UHGV virus genome: UHGV-0118819
DNA from: a virus
DNA length: 42,305 bases
Strand: one strand, 5' to 3'
This document shows positions 2,366 through 42,287 of the stretch, one piece after another. The first letter of the stretch is position 1, and each line of letters begins with the position of its first letter. The translations under genes were made by a program, and so were the position numbers. The notes under the pieces were generated by a model. That model searched no databases and was not told the origin of the DNA. It saw only the letters and a program-made list of their open reading frames with translations.

Positions 2366-2440
2366 GGGTCAGTCGTATAAAGGTCATTACGGAAGGCTGT
2401 TAACCTTCTTATCGTGGTTCGAGTCCACGCTGTCCCGCCA
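2366..2440 (+). tRNA. tRNA-like gene, anticodon GUU (Asn); possibly degenerate
   Basis: Hand-folded cloverleaf: perfect anticodon stem GAAGG/CCTTC, loop CTGTTAA, T-arm CGTGG-TTCGAGT-CCACG, 3' CCA; one mismatch each in acceptor and D stems. Confidence 0.5.
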
Positions 2441-2445
2441 AACAT

Positions 2446-2521
2446 GCTGGTTTAGCTCCAATGGTAGAGCAGTCGCCTTGTAAGCGAATGGGTAGCGGTT
2501 CAAGTCCGTTAACCAGCACCA
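2446..2521 (+). tRNA. tRNA-Thr (anticodon UGU)
   Basis: Hand-folded 76-nt cloverleaf: 7-bp acceptor stem GCTGGTT/AACCAGC, D-arm GCTC..GAGC with GG, anticodon loop CTTGTAA, T-loop TTCAAGT, encoded CCA. Confidence 0.8.
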
Positions 2522-35268: not shown

Positions 35269-35541
35269 TTACCTCGCTGTCAGTTGTTTTGATTTCCGGT
35301 AGCCTGCCGCGTAAATGGCTACGTTTGGCAGGCAAATACTTCCACTGCATTCATCTGCCTTCTTGCAGCGAAGGCTTCCGAGTGATGCTGCTTTGTCTGC
35401 TCTGACGCAACCAGAGAGCTTTAGCGCAATTTTTCGTGCCAGTCGCTGCTCTTGCATTGCCTGTTCACGTTGAGCCTGTCTGCGTGCTCTGCGGCGATTT
35501 CTGGCGTTATCGTCAGCCAGATATGTAATGACTACTGTCAT
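35269..35541 (-). CDS. N: N-like antitermination protein
   Basis: 90 aa; arginine-rich motif DNARNRRRARRQAQREQ near N-terminus; first gene after nutL. Confidence 0.75.
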   Translation of the reverse strand: MTVVITYLADDNARNRRRARRQAQREQAMQEQRLARKIALKLSGCVRADKAASLGSLRCKKADECSGSICLPNVAIYAAGYRKSKQLTAR

Positions 35542-35909: not shown

Positions 35910-36299
35910 TTAGTCAGCGAAGGTTAAGACGAGAATTACCTTAATGATGTCTGCTACAACAGACACGGCCATAGATAAACCAAAGACAATCCAAGCCATA
36001 GAGATGTCTTCACTACCATCGTATAGAGTTCCGTAATCACTGGTGTAAGGCGTAAATGTCGCGCCTTGATACAATAGGTATAAGCTTGATCCATAGAGGA
36101 TAAATGCAGATATCCCTTGTATTGCCATGATCACCAGAATCATGAAACGAGCTGATCTATGCGCCCAAGCCTGGCTTATTTTTTCTGATAGAGATTTCGC
36201 AATAAAAGCATGCGCTAAGCCGTAAATTGTCGAGATTGCCAACATCCCAAAAAAGCTTGCTATAGCGGTTCCAACCATAAGCGCCCCTTGCGTGATCAA
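35910..36299 (-). CDS. small multi-pass membrane protein co-transcribed with cI (rex-slot moron candidate)
   Basis: 129 aa with about 4 hydrophobic segments; TTG start overlapping cI stop (alternative ATG 21 nt downstream); ends just before OL. Confidence 0.65.
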   Translation of the reverse strand: MITQGALMVGTAIASFFGMLAISTIYGLAHAFIAKSLSEKISQAWAHRSARFMILVIMAIQGISAFILYGSSLYLLYQGATFTPYTSDYGTLYDGSEDISMAWIVFGLSMAVSVVADIIKVILVLTFAD

Positions 36300-37012
36300 A
36301 CCAGCCTTAGTTTTGTCTCAATTGCAACGCCTATAATCTTGCAGTTTCCATTGATTGGCACGAGAGGCCATGCAGGGTTAAGTCCCTTGAGGTATTTATT
36401 TCCGCCGTCGATTATCAGCTTCTTGAATGTTGCTTCGTTAGAGTCAGAAAGTTTTGCTATGACCAAGCTGCCGTTGATCGCCTCCCTTCCGGTATCGAAA
36501 AGAACGAATGTTCCCTCTGGAATGCTTAACCCAACCGGTGCCGTCATTGAATCACCTTCCACTTTAAGCCAAAACGCATTACCTTGAATATGCGCGTCAG
36601 ACTCAAGCCAAACATCTATGTCTTTAATGGTGTATGGTTCGCATGCTTCACACCACGAGCCAGCCTGGATACTGCTTAACACCGGATACCTCTTTCCTGC
36701 TCTGTATTCCCCTGCATACCTTACGTTGGCATCGCTCTTAAGGCTTTCTGCCTGTTCTGCAACCTTGGCAGCAATTGACTGGCTAAAATCAGCAATTGAG
36801 ACTTGCAACAATCGTGCAAAACCAGATGCAACCTCAACGTTTAGCGCATTTCTGCCATTAAGATAATGCCCTACCGCTCCTTGGGTGATACCCAGTTCAT
36901 CAGCGATTGAGTATTGGGTTATTCCCAATTCTTTCTTTTTTGACTCATACAAAGCCTTAAGCCGCTTAGCGTCTTCCAGCTGTTCTGTCGTCAGTGATTT
37001 TTTATTTTCCAT
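36296..37012 (-). CDS. cI: CI repressor (HTH + S24 autoprotease domain)
   Basis: 238 aa; N-terminal HTH LGITQYSIADELGITQGAVGHYLNG; C-terminal GDSM...K LexA-like motif. Confidence 0.9.
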   Translation of the reverse strand: MENKKSLTTEQLEDAKRLKALYESKKKELGITQYSIADELGITQGAVGHYLNGRNALNVEVASGFARLLQVSIADFSQSIAAKVAEQAESLKSDANVRYAGEYRAGKRYPVLSSIQAGSWCEACEPYTIKDIDVWLESDAHIQGNAFWLKVEGDSMTAPVGLSIPEGTFVLFDTGREAINGSLVIAKLSDSNEATFKKLIIDGGNKYLKGLNPAWPLVPINGNCKIIGVAIETKLRLV

Positions 37013-37089: not shown

Positions 37090-37118
37090 TTATTCATGGT
37101 TAATAACGGAGAGTGCAT

Positions 37119-37313
37119 ATGATTCGAATGACACTTGCCGATTACGCCAAAATCCATGGACAGGCTAAAGCAGCCAGTGACTTTGGTGTAATCCAGTGCG
37201 CTATCAGCAAGGCCATTCTGGCAGGCCGTAACATCATGGTTACGGTAAAGCCTGATGGCAGTGTGATTGGAGAGGAAGTTCGTCCTTTCCCAAGCAACAA
37301 GAAAAACAAATAG
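37119..37313 (+). CDS. cro: Cro repressor
   Basis: 64 aa [64 protein letters not shown]; close to recalled lambda Cro; GGAGAG RBS. Confidence 0.9.
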
Positions 37314-37319
37314 TAACAC

Positions 37320-37362
37320 CGCTCTTTAACAGTCATGGTCATCATTCCCGCCGAAATGCGGG
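37320..37362 (+). promoter_or_regulatory. nutR (boxA + boxB)
   Basis: CGCTCTTTAACA then CCCGC-CGAAAT-GCGGG hairpin, 7 nt after cro stop. Confidence 0.7.
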
Positions 37363-37370
37363 AATACAAC

Positions 37371-37388
37371 GCGCATAAGTTGATGCGC
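37371..37388 (+). terminator. tR1-like hairpin
   Basis: GCGCAT-AAGTTG-ATGCGC followed by a weak T-rich tail. Confidence 0.35.
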
Positions 37389-37421
37389 ATAACTTCTTAT
37401 TTGTTAAGGAAATACTTACAT

Positions 37422-37700
37422 ATGCAACTTACAAGTACTCGCAAGAAAGCGAATGCAATTACAAGCAACATCCTGAATCGAATTGCTGTACGTGGTCAGC
37501 GAAAGGTTGCCGACGCGTTAGGGATTAATGAATCGCAAATTTCGCGATGGAAAGACAGCTTCATCCCCAAAATGGGAATGCTTCTGGCTGTTCTTGAATG
37601 GGGTGTTGAAGACGAGGAGTTGGCGGAACTGGCTAAGAAAGTAGCCAGAATGCTGACAAAAGAAAAAGCCCCGAAGAACGGCGAATTCTTCGAGGCCTGA
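37422..37700 (+). CDS. cII: CII-like transcriptional activator
   Basis: 92 aa from ATG 37422 (AAGGA RBS); core ESQISRWKDSFIPKMGMLLAVLEWGVEDEELAELAKKVARMLT close to recalled lambda CII. Confidence 0.8.
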   Translation: MQLTSTRKKANAITSNILNRIAVRGQRKVADALGINESQISRWKDSFIPKMGMLLAVLEWGVEDEELAELAKKVARMLTKEKAPKNGEFFEA

Positions 37701-37734: not shown

Positions 37735-37896
37735 ATGACAAAACGTCGTAAGAAATACCAGGAAAAAGAAGAGATTCGACACCCTGATTCACCTGAGGGA
37801 TTAGTGGTAGCCGCAGCAAATAACAGGGCGTTCGCAGAGCGCCTTGTTGGTGTTTACAGACTAGCCAAAGCAGGAGTGAAACATGGGCGTCGTTAA
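37735..37896 (+). CDS. small basic ORF (53 aa) between cII and O
   Basis: Own translation MTKRRKKYQEKEEIRHPDSPEGLVVAAANNRAFAERLVGVYRLAKAGVKHGRR; AGGAG RBS; below ORF-track threshold. Confidence 0.35.
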   Translation: MTKRRKKYQEKEEIRHPDSPEGLVVAAANNRAFAERLVGVYRLAKAGVKHGRR

Positions 37897-37945
37897 GTTA
37901 GCTGATTACAGGCATAACCCTGTACAACATCAGGAGGCATCCAGT

Positions 37946-38773
37946 ATGGGGTATGTCTCTATACACCGCCAGTTTATGGACAGCAGGCTCTATAAGGACT
38001 CTCAGGCAGTACATCTTTGGCTTCACTTAATCCTCAAGGCTAATCACGAATCTACTGTCGTCAATACGGATATCGGTCCGATAACTGTTGATCGCGGTCA
38101 GATGATAACTGGACGCCCGTCGCTGGTCAGAGAAACATTCATCCCCGACAACAAAGTTCGGAGCTTATTACGGACTTTTGAGTCGAAAGGGATGCTTAAT
38201 ATTTGCTCGATGGGGAAGAAATTTAGCCTGTTTACAATCGTTAAATATGACGATTTTCAGGCAAAAAATTGTCCAACGGTTGTCCAACGGTTGTCCAACG
38301 CAAACACCAGTAATGGCGCTGCTCTCAGCGGAGATTGTCCAACGGTTGTCCAACGATTGTCCATAAACAATAATATAAATAATATCTCTAATACTGACGT
38401 ATTAGAGAGTGCCACAGCAGACAAAAAGTCTGACAAGAAAAAACCTTCCGTCAGCTGTCAGGATGTTGTCGATGCTTACCACGAAATCCTTCCTGAAGCG
38501 CCAAGAATCCGCGCACTGAATGACAAGCGTAAAAACCAGATCCGAACGTTCTGGCGCAAAGCCGGAGTGATAACCCGCCAGCTTGACGGGCATGGGTTCA
38601 CGATGCAGGACTGGAGAAATTATTTGAGCTACGTAGGCGAAAATTGCCGATGGATGTTCGAAGAACGCCCAAACCATCAACGCGGAACCGTCTGGCACAA
38701 AAAGGGATTTGATTTCCTGCTTAACGACAATACCTACCTGAAAGTTCGTGAGGGTGAACACGATGACCGATAA
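37946..38773 (+). CDS. replication initiator (O-like) containing origin iterons
   Basis: ATG 37946 with AGGAGG RBS (ORF-track start 37883); iteron DNA translated as NCPTVVQRLSN...DCPTVVQRLSINNN. Confidence 0.7.
   Translation: MGYVSIHRQFMDSRLYKDSQAVHLWLHLILKANHESTVVNTDIGPITVDRGQMITGRPSLVRETFIPDNKVRSLLRTFESKGMLNICSMGKKFSLFTIVKYDDFQAKNCPTVVQRLSNANTSNGAALSGDCPTVVQRLSINNNINNISNTDVLESATADKKSDKKKPSVSCQDVVDAYHEILPEAPRIRALNDKRKNQIRTFWRKAGVITRQLDGHGFTMQDWRNYLSYVGENCRWMFEERPNHQRGTVWHKKGFDFLLNDNTYLKVREGEHDDR
38269..38410. repeat. origin of replication: six 11-bp iterons (TTGTCCAACGG) in two clusters plus AT-rich region
   Basis: Iterons at 38269-38301 and 38335-38367 followed by AATAATATAAATAATATCTCTAATA. 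Confidence 0.65.
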
Positions 38774-40199
38774 TTTTTATGCGCCGCCCCATAGCATCGA
38801 GGCAGAGCAGGCGGTGATTGGTGGATTGCTTCTGGATGATGACAGCAGTGAGCGCGTCCAGAAAGTTCTGGCGATGCTGAAGCCTGATTCATTTTACAGT
38901 CGACCACACAAAATCCTTTTCGAAGAAATAACCAGAATGCACCGTGAGCAAAAGCCAGTAGATGGCCTGACGCTTTTCGATGAACTGGAGCGTAAATCGT
39001 TAACGGCGTCTGTTGGCGGTTTTGCTTATATCGCTGAGATCGCAAAGAACACGCCAAGCGCAGCAAACATCGTTGCCTATGCAATGCAGGTTCGTGAAAC
39101 CGCAATGGAACGCTACGCCATCAACCGCATGACTGAAGCGACGGAATTGCTCTATTCCCGCAACGGAATGACTGCAACGCAGAAGTACGAAGCTATTCAG
39201 GCGATTTTCACGCAACTGACAGACCATGCAAAAACCGGATCGCGTCGCGGCCTTCGCTCATTTGGTGAGGTCATGGAAGACTGGGTTAGCGACCTTGAGA
39301 AGCGATTTGACCCGTCAGGCGAACAACGAGGAATGAGCACAGGGATCCCATCGCTGGACAGGATGCTGTCACCGAAAGGTCTGGTGAAAGGCTCTCTGTT
39401 TGTCATTGGCGCTCGCCCTAAGATGGGGAAAACGACGCTATACAGCCAGATGGCAATCAACTGCGCAGTGCATGAGAAAAAGCCCGCTCTGATGTTCAGC
39501 CTTGAAATGCCAGGTGATCAGATACTGGAAAAACTGGTAGGACAGAAGTCAGGTGTTAACCCGAATATTTTTTACCTTCCGGCGACAAATGACGCTGATG
39601 ACGGCTATCAGGGTGATTACGATGGTGACTTCAATAGGGCGATCGAAACAGCCAATCGCTTGAGTGAAATCGACCTGCTTTACATCGACGACACGCCGGG
39701 ATTATCTCTGGCTCAAATCGTCAGCGAAAGCCGTCGAATCAAGCGAGAAAAAGGATGTGTTGGGATGATTCTGGTCGATTACCTGACACTAATGGCCGCT
39801 GAGAAGGCCGATCGTAACGACCTTGCTTACGGCATGATCACCAAAGGACTGAAGAACCTTGCCAAAGAGCTTGATTGCGTTGTTGTGCTTCTGACGCAGC
39901 TTAACCGCGCACTGGAAAGCCGAACCAATAAACGCCCATTACCAAGTGACTCACGAGATACAGGGCAGATTGAACAGGATTGCGATTATTGGGTTGGGAT
40001 CCATCGTGAAGGTGCTTTTGATGACAGTGTTCCACCTGGTGAAACCGAACTAATCCTTCGTCTCAATCGTCATGGCAATACCGGTACGGTGTATTGCATT
40101 CAGGCAAATGGCGCTATTTATGACACAGACCAACAGTCTGCTGAAATTCGCCGCCGTGAACGCGAGGAACCGCAGTCCAAGAAGAAAGGAGGATTCTGA
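38763..40199 (+). CDS. replicative DNA helicase (DnaB-like)
   Basis: 478 aa from ATG 38763; Walker A GARPKMGKTT; DnaB-like N-terminal IEAEQAVIGGLLLD. Confidence 0.9.
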   Translation: MTDNFYAPPHSIEAEQAVIGGLLLDDDSSERVQKVLAMLKPDSFYSRPHKILFEEITRMHREQKPVDGLTLFDELERKSLTASVGGFAYIAEIAKNTPSAANIVAYAMQVRETAMERYAINRMTEATELLYSRNGMTATQKYEAIQAIFTQLTDHAKTGSRRGLRSFGEVMEDWVSDLEKRFDPSGEQRGMSTGIPSLDRMLSPKGLVKGSLFVIGARPKMGKTTLYSQMAINCAVHEKKPALMFSLEMPGDQILEKLVGQKSGVNPNIFYLPATNDADDGYQGDYDGDFNRAIETANRLSEIDLLYIDDTPGLSLAQIVSESRRIKREKGCVGMILVDYLTLMAAEKADRNDLAYGMITKGLKNLAKELDCVVVLLTQLNRALESRTNKRPLPSDSRDTGQIEQDCDYWVGIHREGAFDDSVPPGETELILRLNRHGNTGTVYCIQANGAIYDTDQQSAEIRRREREEPQSKKKGGF

Positions 40200-40227
40200 T
40201 GACCATCTACATCACTGAGCTAATAAC

Positions 40228-40257
40228 AGGCCTGCTGGTAATCGCAGGCCTTTTTAT
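40228..40257 (+). terminator. intrinsic terminator after helicase gene
   Basis: AGGCCTGC-(8 nt loop)-GCAGGCCT followed by TTTTTATTT. Confidence 0.7.
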
Positions 40258-40274
40258 TTGGTGGAGGGTAAATC

Positions 40275-40481
40275 GTGGCTGAGTTAATTTTCTCTGCATT
40301 GAGGCTTCTCGGTGCTATGTGGATGGTGGCGACGTTCATTGTGGTTGTCGGAAGTTTTGTCCGGTTGATAGGCGAAGGTAAAGACCTGGTGGGTGTGCTG
40401 TTCGGTAGCATTCTCCTGTGGGTGATTATCGGTGTTATGCCTGTCGCTGTAGCAAAAATGGCGTGGCGTTTTGTGAGTTGA
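40275..40481 (+). CDS. small two-pass membrane protein (68 aa)
   Basis: GTG start with GGAGGG RBS just after the terminator; two hydrophobic segments. Confidence 0.55.
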   Translation: MAELIFSALRLLGAMWMVATFIVVVGSFVRLIGEGKDLVGVLFGSILLWVIIGVMPVAVAKMAWRFVS

Positions 40482-40498
40482 ACTGAGGGTAAGTATCG

Positions 40499-40765
40499 AT
40501 GGACGAATCAAGAAAGCAGTTTGAAGAATGGTTTGAAAATTACACCGGATGTGATCCTAAAAATAAAATATACGCCAATATGGTTGAGATGTATTGGCAA
40601 GCGTGGCAGGCATCGCGAGCAGCTATCGAGATTGAGTGTTCTGGAGAAAGAGAGCGTGAGGCATTTTCTACCGATTTCGAGGATGGGGTTACATTTGGTT
40701 ATAACAACGCAATTAGTGAATGCGAAGGACGGATTCGCGCTGCTGGAGTCAAAGTGAAGGAGTGA
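40499..40765 (+). CDS. hypothetical nin-region protein (88 aa)
   Basis: ORF in nin region. Confidence 0.6.
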   Translation: MDESRKQFEEWFENYTGCDPKNKIYANMVEMYWQAWQASRAAIEIECSGEREREAFSTDFEDGVTFGYNNAISECEGRIRAAGVKVKE

Positions 40766-40769
40766 GTAT

Positions 40770-41024
40770 ATGCCATTTATAAAATTAACCATGCAATGCA
40801 GCATCTATCAGCCACCAAGCACAGGCGTGATAGAAAGCACCAGAAGTGCATATGAGCCCTTGTACGTTAACTCTGACAACATCGAAACCCTATTTGATGC
40901 CGGATTTACGATTGTAAGAATGGCAAGTGGTGAGCGGTTCGATGTTATTGAGAAACCAGAAGCTATTTTGGCGTTAATTAATCCATGCGTGCAGAAGGTG
41001 AGCCATGAGGAAACTAACGTTTGA
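40770..41024 (+). CDS. hypothetical nin-region protein (84 aa)
   Basis: ORF in nin region. Confidence 0.6.
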   Translation: MPFIKLTMQCSIYQPPSTGVIESTRSAYEPLYVNSDNIETLFDAGFTIVRMASGERFDVIEKPEAILALINPCVQKVSHEETNV

Positions 41025-41445
41025 ACTAAGAAGCCCCATTCATCAGCAGAACGCCATTCAAGCTATCCAGCAAATCCTTCCAGACCCAACCACACCAATC
41101 GTAGTAACCATTCAGGAACGCAACCGCAGCTTAGACCAAAACAGGAAGCTATGGGCCTGCTTAGGTGACGTCTCTCGTCAGGTTGAATGGCATGGTCGCT
41201 GGCTGGATGCAGAAAGCTGGAAGTGTGTGTTTACCGCAGCATTAAAGCAGCAGGATGTTGTTCCTAACCTTGCCGGGAATGGCTTTGTGGTAATAGGCCA
41301 GTCAACCAGCAGGATGCGTGTAGGCGAATTTGCGGAGCTATTAGAGCTTATACAGGCATTCGGTACAGAGCGTGGCGTTAAGTGGTCAGACGAAGCGAGA
41401 CTGGCTCTGGAGTGGAAAGCGAGATGGGGAGGTCGGGCTGCATGA
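41005..41445 (+). CDS. ninB: NinB (Orf) recombination mediator
   Basis: 146 aa MRKLTFELRSPIHQQNAIQAIQQILPDPTTPIVVTIQERNRSLDQNRKLWACLGDVSRQVEWHGRWLD... nearly identical to recalled lambda NinB. Confidence 0.9.
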   Translation: MRKLTFELRSPIHQQNAIQAIQQILPDPTTPIVVTIQERNRSLDQNRKLWACLGDVSRQVEWHGRWLDAESWKCVFTAALKQQDVVPNLAGNGFVVIGQSTSRMRVGEFAELLELIQAFGTERGVKWSDEARLALEWKARWGGRAA

Positions 41446-42287
41446 TAAATGTCGTTAGTTTCTCCGGTGGCAGGACGTCAGCATATTTGCTCTGGCTAAT
41501 GGAGCAAAAGCGACAGGCTGGTGAAGACGTGCATTACGTTTTCATGGATACAGGGGCAGAGCACCCTAAAACATATGAGTTCATCCGAAATATCGTCAGT
41601 AACTGGAAAATAGACTTACATTGCCTTCGTGTAATACCTAATCCAGAAATGGGGAAGGCCAGTAGTTATGAAGAGATAGGTGTCACTGATATTGGTCCAG
41701 ATCTTATACCGTGGAAAAGGATGTTGAATAAATACGGACATCCATATATCGGCGGTGCGTTCTGTACCGACAGAATGAAGTCTGTTCCATTCACCAAATA
41801 TTGTCAGGAAAAGTTTGGGAAAGGAAATTACATCACATGGCTTGGCATTCGCACAGATGAACCAAACAGGCTTAAAAGGGCTAATGGTTTTCGGTACCTG
41901 GCTGATATAAGCGATTTTGAAAAACAGGATGTGCTTGATTGGTGGAGTGGGCAGAAGTTTGATCTTGGCATACAGGAGCATCTTGGTAATTGTGTTTTCT
42001 GTATAAAAAAAAGTATGCAAAAGGTTGCGCTGGCAGCCATGGATGAACCAGAACTTGCAGATGCATTTATCAACATCCTTGATACAGAAATAAAAACAGG
42101 AAAGGAACCGGTTATGTATCGAGGGAATAATACACTTAAATCACTGATTGCCTTGTTTAGTGATATATCAAGAGATGAGTTAGCCTCAAGAATGACATCA
42201 ATGCGACAGTATGATTCAGGTTCGTGTTCTGAATCATGTGAAGCATTTTCATGTCAGCTTGGATTTTATTTTGAGGATGCGGCATGA
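41442..42287 (+). CDS. ninC: NinC-like protein, PAPS-reductase/PP-loop family
   Basis: 281 aa from ATG 41442 (ATGA overlap with ninB); MINVVSFSGGRTSAY PP-loop (SGG) motif. Confidence 0.85.
   Translation: MINVVSFSGGRTSAYLLWLMEQKRQAGEDVHYVFMDTGAEHPKTYEFIRNIVSNWKIDLHCLRVIPNPEMGKASSYEEIGVTDIGPDLIPWKRMLNKYGHPYIGGAFCTDRMKSVPFTKYCQEKFGKGNYITWLGIRTDEPNRLKRANGFRYLADISDFEKQDVLDWWSGQKFDLGIQEHLGNCVFCIKKSMQKVALAAMDEPELADAFINILDTEIKTGKEPVMYRGNNTLKSLIALFSDISRDELASRMTSMRQYDSGSCSESCEAFSCQLGFYFEDAA

Follow-up and report, generated by a model that had tools for sequence, protein, structure and literature searches.

The window analysed here, the whole 42,305-nucleotide stretch of the virus genome UHGV-0118819, derives from a mosaic lambdoid phage or prophage with an immunity and replication region of the HK620/mEpX2/HK140 type. 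The genes for antiterminator N (35269..35541; Pfam N_peptide, 1.1e-15) and cI (36296-37012) lie on the minus strand. The plus strand carries cro (37113-37313), cII (within 37335-37700), O (37883-38773) and a DnaB-type replicative helicase (38748..40199; Pfam DnaB_C 5e-60, DnaB 3.5e-31; phrog_19), which is the lambdoid "P" of the HK022/HK620 type and is annotated as P in both of these phages. The helicase gene is followed on the same strand by the 27-codon gene ninA (40199..40282), an ORF of 68 codons (40275..40481) and, next in the chain, a gene for a soluble protein of 88 aa (40499..40765; phrog_343) with its own GAGGG ribosome-binding site, which in relatives is not always found 3' of the 68-aa gene. 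NinB (41005-41445) and a NinC-like PAPS reductase (41382-42287) are encoded further downstream on the plus strand. An ORF of 84 aa in front of ninB (40770-41024, plus strand) matched phrog_8458 ("flagellar protein") and scored 23.9 bits against Pfam FlbD, just under the cutoff of 24.7, which is an odd annotation for a gene of the nin region. An Rfam scan of the entire window found only two adjacent tRNA genes far from the 68-aa ORF (2366-2518, plus strand; 61.5 and 55.3 bits) and gave no match in the region of the ORF.

A terminator scan placed a strong intrinsic terminator on the plus strand at 40228..40259. It consists of the hairpin AGGCCTGC-TGGTAATC-GCAGGCCT (40228-40251; 8 pairs, 6 of them G-C) and the T-run TTTTTATTT ending at 40259. 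Alignment with lambda (NC_001416) revealed an identical stem, loop and T-run between ren and ninB, and the same terminator bears the name tR2 in the annotation of HK620 and is entered as rho-independent in that of mEp235. Having the same hairpin and T-run in the same place between the replication genes or ren and the nin genes, the element is tR2. A preliminary description of this DNA had seen a helicase terminator directly in front of the 68-aa ORF; the terminator is indeed there, but it is lambda tR2 and lies inside ninA, not in an intergenic gap. The distance to the ORF, previously given as 18 bp, came close to the measured values of 15 nt from the last T and 23 nt from the stem to the GTG, and the alignment with lambda bore out that the junction is the site of ren, ninA and tR2 in that phage.

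The identical tR2 of lambda has been measured in vivo, with a maximal termination of about 0.9 (Li et al. 2016, PMC4824070). In the same study termination was full with an upstream stop codon 28 nt from the hairpin and below 10% with a stop at 5 nt. As the helicase stop codon of the window (TGA, 40197-40199) lies exactly 28 nt ahead of the first hairpin base, tR2 should be near full strength here as well. Relatives of the window displayed three substitutions in the stem, all of which still pair as G-U and are synonymous in ninA.

The gene that contains tR2, ninA (MTIYITELITGLLVIAGLFIWWRVNRG; plus strand), encodes a single hydrophobic helix. It matched phrog_5907 (E 5e-18) and is annotated as NinA in HK620, where tR2 is annotated inside it, and in HK630 and SPN9CC; Pfam, NCBIfam and PADLOC scans of the 27-aa NinA returned nothing. 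In lambda the NinA initiation site is active and "not weak", and NinA translation cuts termination at tR2 by only about 10% (PMC4824070). The ninA ATG overlaps the helicase stop (TGATG), and the ninA TGA (40280-40282) overlaps the start of the 68-aa ORF (GTGGCTGA), ending five bases downstream of the GTG. Helicase, ninA and the 68-aa ORF thus form an interlinked three-gene chain with overlapping stops and starts. All variants (GTGGCTGA, GTGGTTGA, GTGGTTAA, ATGGTTAA; ATGA with ninB in lambda) have the ninA stop overlapping the start of the next gene, and conservation of this overlap through five sequence variants suggests additional coupling of the two genes by termination and reinitiation. The junction of the window exemplifies the "chain of interlinked genes" described long ago, as the nin region was called by Kroger and Hobom (1982) according to the papers that cite them (PMC8022706, PMC4824070). 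In the predicted minimum free energy fold of the read-through RNA (40199-40290), the tR2 stem is lengthened and the first ninA codons pair with the GGAGGG stretch that serves the 68-aa gene. At -27.2 kcal/mol this fold has weak statistical support (z = -2.06; 3 of 200 shuffles as good), and translation of the 68-aa gene could, according to the model, hinge on ribosomes opening ninA.

The 68-aa ORF begins with the GTG at 40275 and ends with a TGA at 40479-40481 (plus strand). ORF, start codon and the Shine-Dalgarno sequence GGAGGG (40263..40268, plus strand), separated from the GTG by a 6-nt spacer, are all present as first described; relatives have GGAGAG or GGAGGG. The protein aligned over its full length with PHROG 1165 (E 2.2e-35), its residues 1-68 covering all 68 positions of the profile. 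It matched phrog_1165 only, so it does not belong to the NinA family, PHROG 5907. The exact protein is deposited in RefSeq as WP_157915250.1, "hypothetical protein". Other members of PHROG 1165 are HK022_58, orf70 of Stx2-converting phage 86, SPN9CC_0027 and gp58 of mEp213, and the protein is called "hypothetical" in HK022, HK75, Stx2-86 and SPN9CC. Relatives of the ORF were detected in 107 phage records (tblastn), 231 IMG/VR stretches and 200 protein clusters. The tR2/ninA segment was present in 2037 of 5426 complete E. coli genomes, and the segment together with the ORF, counted where at least 80% of a 283-nt query matched, in 539 of the 5426, the latter number referring to this allele group of the gene. 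Found in about a tenth of the complete E. coli genomes, many Shiga-toxin phages included, the family ranks among very common prophage proteins. The 68-aa ORF is a genuine, widely conserved gene of lambdoid phages.

Conservation of the reading frame among relatives, on which the preliminary description had made the ORF depend, was evaluated for 66 unique sequences from 94 loci. The frame comprised 68 codons without indels in 65 of the 66 unique regions; the exception is Salmonella phage 146851_sal5, with an altered C-terminus and an extension to 104 aa. One old H-19B sequence has an in-frame stop in the gene. The start always falls on codon 1, which reads GTG in two E. coli lineages and ATG in that of Salmonella; immediately before it the E. 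coli types have a stop codon, and the Salmonella ATG has no preceding stop. A shorter product starting at Met15 or Met17 was rejected, both methionines being absent in two of the three lineages, and the conserved start at codon 1 likewise speaks against it. The protein is annotated in truncated form, with 52-54 aa from an internal ATG, in mEp235, HK630 and Huey, and the gene is missing from the annotations of HK620 and H-19B. The conserved product to be annotated is the full 68 aa from the GTG, not the 52-54 aa of some GenBank records.

Between the three lineages (window, HK620 and SPN9CC types), codons 1-44 have a nucleotide identity of 51-57%, with hydropathy and key residues kept. Nei-Gojobori dN/dS ratios between lineages were 0.18-0.40 in the sense frame, the lowest of the six frames, compared with 0.48-2.0 in the others. 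Within the closest allele group the ratio was 0.5-0.7, and because of this high value constraint on individual residues appears to be loose in that group, the C-terminal third excepted. The same ratio, together with a codon-aligned antisense frame that is open for 76-100 codons in all lineages, could be taken to mean that the ORF is a non-functional by-product and that the DNA is conserved for some other reason, for instance because it holds an RNA element, a Rho-utilisation region or a gene on the antisense strand. However, length, start, hydropathy and key residues are retained at a DNA identity of only 51-57% between lineages, the sense frame has the lowest dN/dS, remote homologues exist at the protein level and the region has no Rfam match. 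An open antisense frame is moreover expected in an ORF poor in TTA, CTA and TCA codons. An antisense gene was therefore rejected as a candidate, and we regard the by-product explanation as a whole as very improbable.

The remote homologues were revealed by a profile search of 1.84 billion representative proteins, which yielded 26 clusters, including relatives of 63-66 aa at 25-33% identity. These share K10, W16, a VNxGxDP turn, W49, G53, P56, K61 and W64, and of these residues G53, P56 and W64 are invariant among members down to 25% identity. Two remote relatives were looked up in their genomic surroundings. One (P0203, locus L096) lies in the gene order cI-cro-cII-O-DnaC-like-...-homologue-...-NinX-NinF, the other (P0209, locus L095) in a RecT-containing gene string; the slot after the replication genes is thus common to at least one of the two. 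No convincing terminator was detected upstream of the remote homologues. Association with a terminator was therefore discarded as a trait of the family, the more so as Salmonella phage S9-5 has the gene without ninA/tR2, and the link to tR2 is not essential to the function of the 68-aa protein.

The junction is mosaic on both sides of tR2. The 84-nt ninA/tR2 segment (40199-40282 in the window; loci L001-L094) is nearly invariant behind 20 distinct upstream flanks, among them two kinds of DnaB-type helicase, ren of the lambda type, a primase/helicase and an 89-aa protein; on its 3' side stand alleles of the 68-aa gene whose DNA sequences diverge by up to 49%. In its behaviour the segment resembles a conserved junction, or a linker for recombination, within the lambdoid mosaic. 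In HK022 (locus L002, 1600-2340) an insertion of 0.7 kb inside ninA, which contains HK022_56 (a NinA-like peptide of 34 aa) and HK022_57 (203 aa), replaces the first third of the gene and leaves tR2 intact at the end of HK022_57. Replacement of the N-terminus of NinA in HK022, with the tR2 DNA kept, indicates that the terminator and not the peptide is the conserved element. In phage S9-5 (locus L092, about 1440-1510) ninA/tR2 is wholly absent, so that the ATG of the 68-aa gene directly follows the ribosome-binding site of the helicase. To judge from these comparisons, what is conserved at the junction is the terminator together with the ribosome-binding site, a unit that the 68-aa gene does not require. 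In phage vB_EcoP-720R6 (locus L086, about 1470-1500) the G-run after tR2 is 1 nt longer (GGGGGGGG), which breaks the ninA frame and leaves the 68-aa gene intact; either a genuine variant or a sequencing error in the homopolymer could account for this.

A further joint lies within the 68-aa gene. Its last 24 codons are far closer between lineages than its first 44 (dS of 0.47 versus 1.6 for the window and HK620), and the comparison of the window with the HK620 type (L001) gave 81-86% identity for codons 45-68 and about 55% for codons 1-44. One protein (P0188) is a clean natural recombinant in which a helix 1 of the window type is joined at the GKD turn to a helix 2 of the HK620 type. This contrast along the gene and the recombinant together place a mosaic joint at the hairpin turn of the encoded protein.

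Two hydrophobic segments had been noted in the 68-aa protein, and both were recovered as Kyte-Doolittle means over 19 residues of 2.26 (residues 11-29) and 2.54 (residues 41-59). The protein comprises a first transmembrane segment at about residues 11-31, the turn GEGKD (33-37), a second transmembrane segment at about residues 39-60 and the tail AKMAWRFVS. AlphaFold2, run on a family alignment of 14 sequences, predicted a helical hairpin with helices at residues 2-33 and 38-67 around the turn EGKD (mean pLDDT 91, pTM 0.69). The protein accordingly has the two hydrophobic helices of membrane-spanning length and the short turn of a membrane hairpin. Outside the net-neutral turn, positive residues are found at K/R10 before helix 1 and at K61 and R65 after helix 2. 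We infer that the product is probably an inner-membrane helical hairpin with both ends in the cytoplasm; cytoplasmic ends are favoured by the pattern of these few charges and by topological compatibility with natural NinA fusions, which are possible only if the C-terminus of NinA and the N-terminus of the 68-aa protein share a side of the membrane. Conservation is highest in helix 2, including G53 and P56, and in the AK-x-x-W tail, the pattern expected of a surface that binds another membrane protein. A Foldseek search of the model against BFVD (viral) and PDB retrieved nothing below E 0.9, and the hits above this value were generic helical hairpins such as ATP-synthase c subunits.

Class II holins are likewise proteins of about 70 aa with two helices and an N-in, C-in topology, and by size and two-helix architecture the 68-aa protein resembles S21-type pinholins. 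A role as a holin- or pinholin-like protein of lysis timing is nevertheless hard to credit. The protein matched no holin of Pfam or PHROG, its C-terminal tail has just 9 residues with a charge of +2 and is not of the long, highly charged kind, and the gene lies in the early operon between helicase and ninB, not in a late lysis cassette, with no endolysin or spanin gene adjacent.

The natural fusions come from Salmonella prophages, in which at least four different in-frame variants that join NinA to the 68-aa protein were found (93-94 aa; P0162, P0164, P0166 and P0169; locus L097, 2501-2785). They arise by small indels just after the tR2 T-run, one of them, a 2-nt insertion, being indexed in 55 blocks of the collection. 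Along with the stop-start overlap in all variants and compatible topologies (a positive C-terminus of NinA, K10 just before the first helix of the 68-aa protein), the fusions would fit a model in which NinA with its one helix and the 68-aa protein with its two are subunits of a three-helix membrane unit, kept at a fixed ratio by translational coupling, the pair being the functional entity. We think this unlikely, as either partner occurs without the other: lambda and about three quarters of the tR2-carrying E. coli genomes have NinA and not the 68-aa gene, and the 68-aa gene lacks NinA in S9-5 and the remote homologues. Moreover, HK022 has lost the NinA N-terminus and kept only the tR2 DNA, and the fusions may be mere frameshifts in decaying prophages. 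AlphaFold modelling of a natural fusion, meant to show any packing of the NinA helix against the hairpin, resulted in a pLDDT of only 58.6.

The position of the gene bears on when the protein would be made. A plain consensus scan of 39500-41500, which weak or non-sigma-70 sites may escape, found no sigma-70-like promoter, compared with 2.5 expected by chance. In the absence of a local promoter-like site, the 68-aa gene would depend on pR transcripts that pass both tR1 and tR2. The window has both N, the antiterminator required to read through tR1 and tR2 and 98% identical to that of HK620, and nutR, located between cro and cII (37320..37364, plus strand) with boxA CGCTCTTTAA at 37320-37329 and a boxB-like hairpin TTCCCGC-CGAAAT-GCGGGAA at 37345-37364; it matched the annotated HK620 nutR region at 65 of 66 nt, with one mismatch. 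N antitermination is therefore the obvious route past tR2. With an efficient tR2 upstream, these sequence data agree with the earlier proposal that expression relies on terminator read-through or N antitermination, and expression of the gene is most likely delayed-early and N-dependent, not lysogenic.

This timing weighs on the function first suggested for the protein, that of an exclusion factor or toxin, here taken as a protein that the prophage would express to the benefit of the lysogen, acting in superinfection exclusion, in abortive infection or as a membrane toxin. Small membrane proteins of this kind, such as SieB, HK97 gp15 and the Hok-type toxins, are common in temperate phages, and the 68-aa protein is small and very hydrophobic, has two transmembrane helices and is encoded by an accessory and mosaic gene. 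However, the gene lies in the pR operon past tR1 and tR2, which lysogens keep repressed, the consensus scan of 39500-41500 turned up no promoter-like site around it, and it is translationally chained to the replication genes, in a position common to one of the two remote homologues examined. Scans of the protein gave no match in Pfam or NCBIfam and none in PADLOC at E <= 1, and no antisense or antitoxin partner is evident. Type I toxins of the Hok/Gef or TisB-like kind have a single helix in about 30-50 aa, their own promoter and an antisense RNA; the 68-aa protein has two helices and no Pfam match, and no promoter was found for its gene. We obtained no evidence in support of an exclusion factor or toxin. 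As the position of the gene is silent in lysogens, a role as lysogen-protecting exclusion factor or toxin of a toxin-antitoxin pair is unlikely, and we give this explanation little weight.

Elsewhere in the window, a very hydrophobic ORF of 129 aa with several predicted membrane helices (35910-36299, minus strand) abuts the end of cI, in the slot of lambda rex or HK620 hkaS; it had no match in Pfam. Its orientation, the same as that of cI, makes it a stronger candidate for a lysogen-expressed membrane protein than the 68-aa gene is.

The anatomy of the junction as corrected here comprises a terminator, tR2, within ninA, three overlapping genes, and a 68-aa gene under constraint at the protein level. 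The explanation that we favour, and hold to be reasonably probable though well short of certain, is that the 68-aa gene is an accessory lambdoid nin gene, a link in an N-dependent chain, that encodes a membrane-hairpin factor of lytic growth. In the order helicase, ninA, orf68, it would be the third link on the early rightward transcript from pR and would be expressed only when RNA polymerase passes tR2. This would be efficient once N has modified the polymerase at nutR, in the delayed-early lytic phase, and would otherwise remain at a basal level of roughly 10%. Translation would start at the GTG from the gene's own GGAGGG and would probably benefit from ribosomes that terminate on ninA five bases past the GTG. 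The protein would act in the infected cell, not in the lysogen, and most likely by helix-helix binding to another inner-membrane protein through the conserved helix 2 and the K-x-x-W tail.

The gene is dispensable, since lambda lacks it and has ninB directly after tR2. Only 539 of the 2037 E. coli genomes with the tR2/ninA segment carry this allele group of the gene, and the whole nin region of lambda can be deleted (PMC10695390). Literature searches on ninA in lambdoid phages, transmembrane proteins of the nin region and small membrane proteins of lambdoid phages yielded no function for the family. Our best guess, made with low confidence and by analogy, is an early membrane factor that resembles Imm of T4 or modulates the host. 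A more elaborate version, in which ribosomes on ninA tune read-through of tR2 and feed the GTG of the 68-aa gene, so that a terminator-gated, coupled pair forms a three-helix unit acting early in lytic growth, for example by blocking entry of superinfecting DNA, as Imm does in T4, or by modulating a host membrane protein, seems to us quite doubtful.

Imm of T4 is an early, small inner-membrane protein of superinfection immunity with two helices. The 68-aa protein would be like it in kind only, as a small protein with two predicted transmembrane helices made early in lytic infection; the two had no sequence or fold match, and the comparison is one of analogy, not of membership. Ren of lambda is a non-essential protein whose gene likewise lies between the replication genes and ninB, but it differs from the 68-aa protein in having 96 aa, in being encoded upstream of tR2 and in having no predicted membrane helices, and family searches revealed no similarity between the two. 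Both ren and the 68-aa gene are present in H-19B and in many E. coli prophages. By sequence comparison the 68-aa ORF is neither ren nor ninA and represents a separate family that lambda lacks.

The tR2/ninA junction of lambda has the same hairpin and T-run as the window, the same ninA ORF and the same overlap of the ninA stop with the next start; in HK620, tR2 and ninA are annotated by Clark et al. The two junctions differ in their flanks. The upstream gene is ren in lambda and the DnaB-type helicase in the window, and the gene after ninA is ninB in lambda, whereas the window has three extra small genes (68, 88 and 84 aa) between tR2 and ninB. The closest counterpart of the window ORF is PHROG 1165 with WP_157915250.1, which has the same length of 68 aa and the same position after ninA/tR2 and is the same family. 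The ORF is thus an ordinary member of an already catalogued family of hypothetical proteins, with nothing to suggest a new kind of system.
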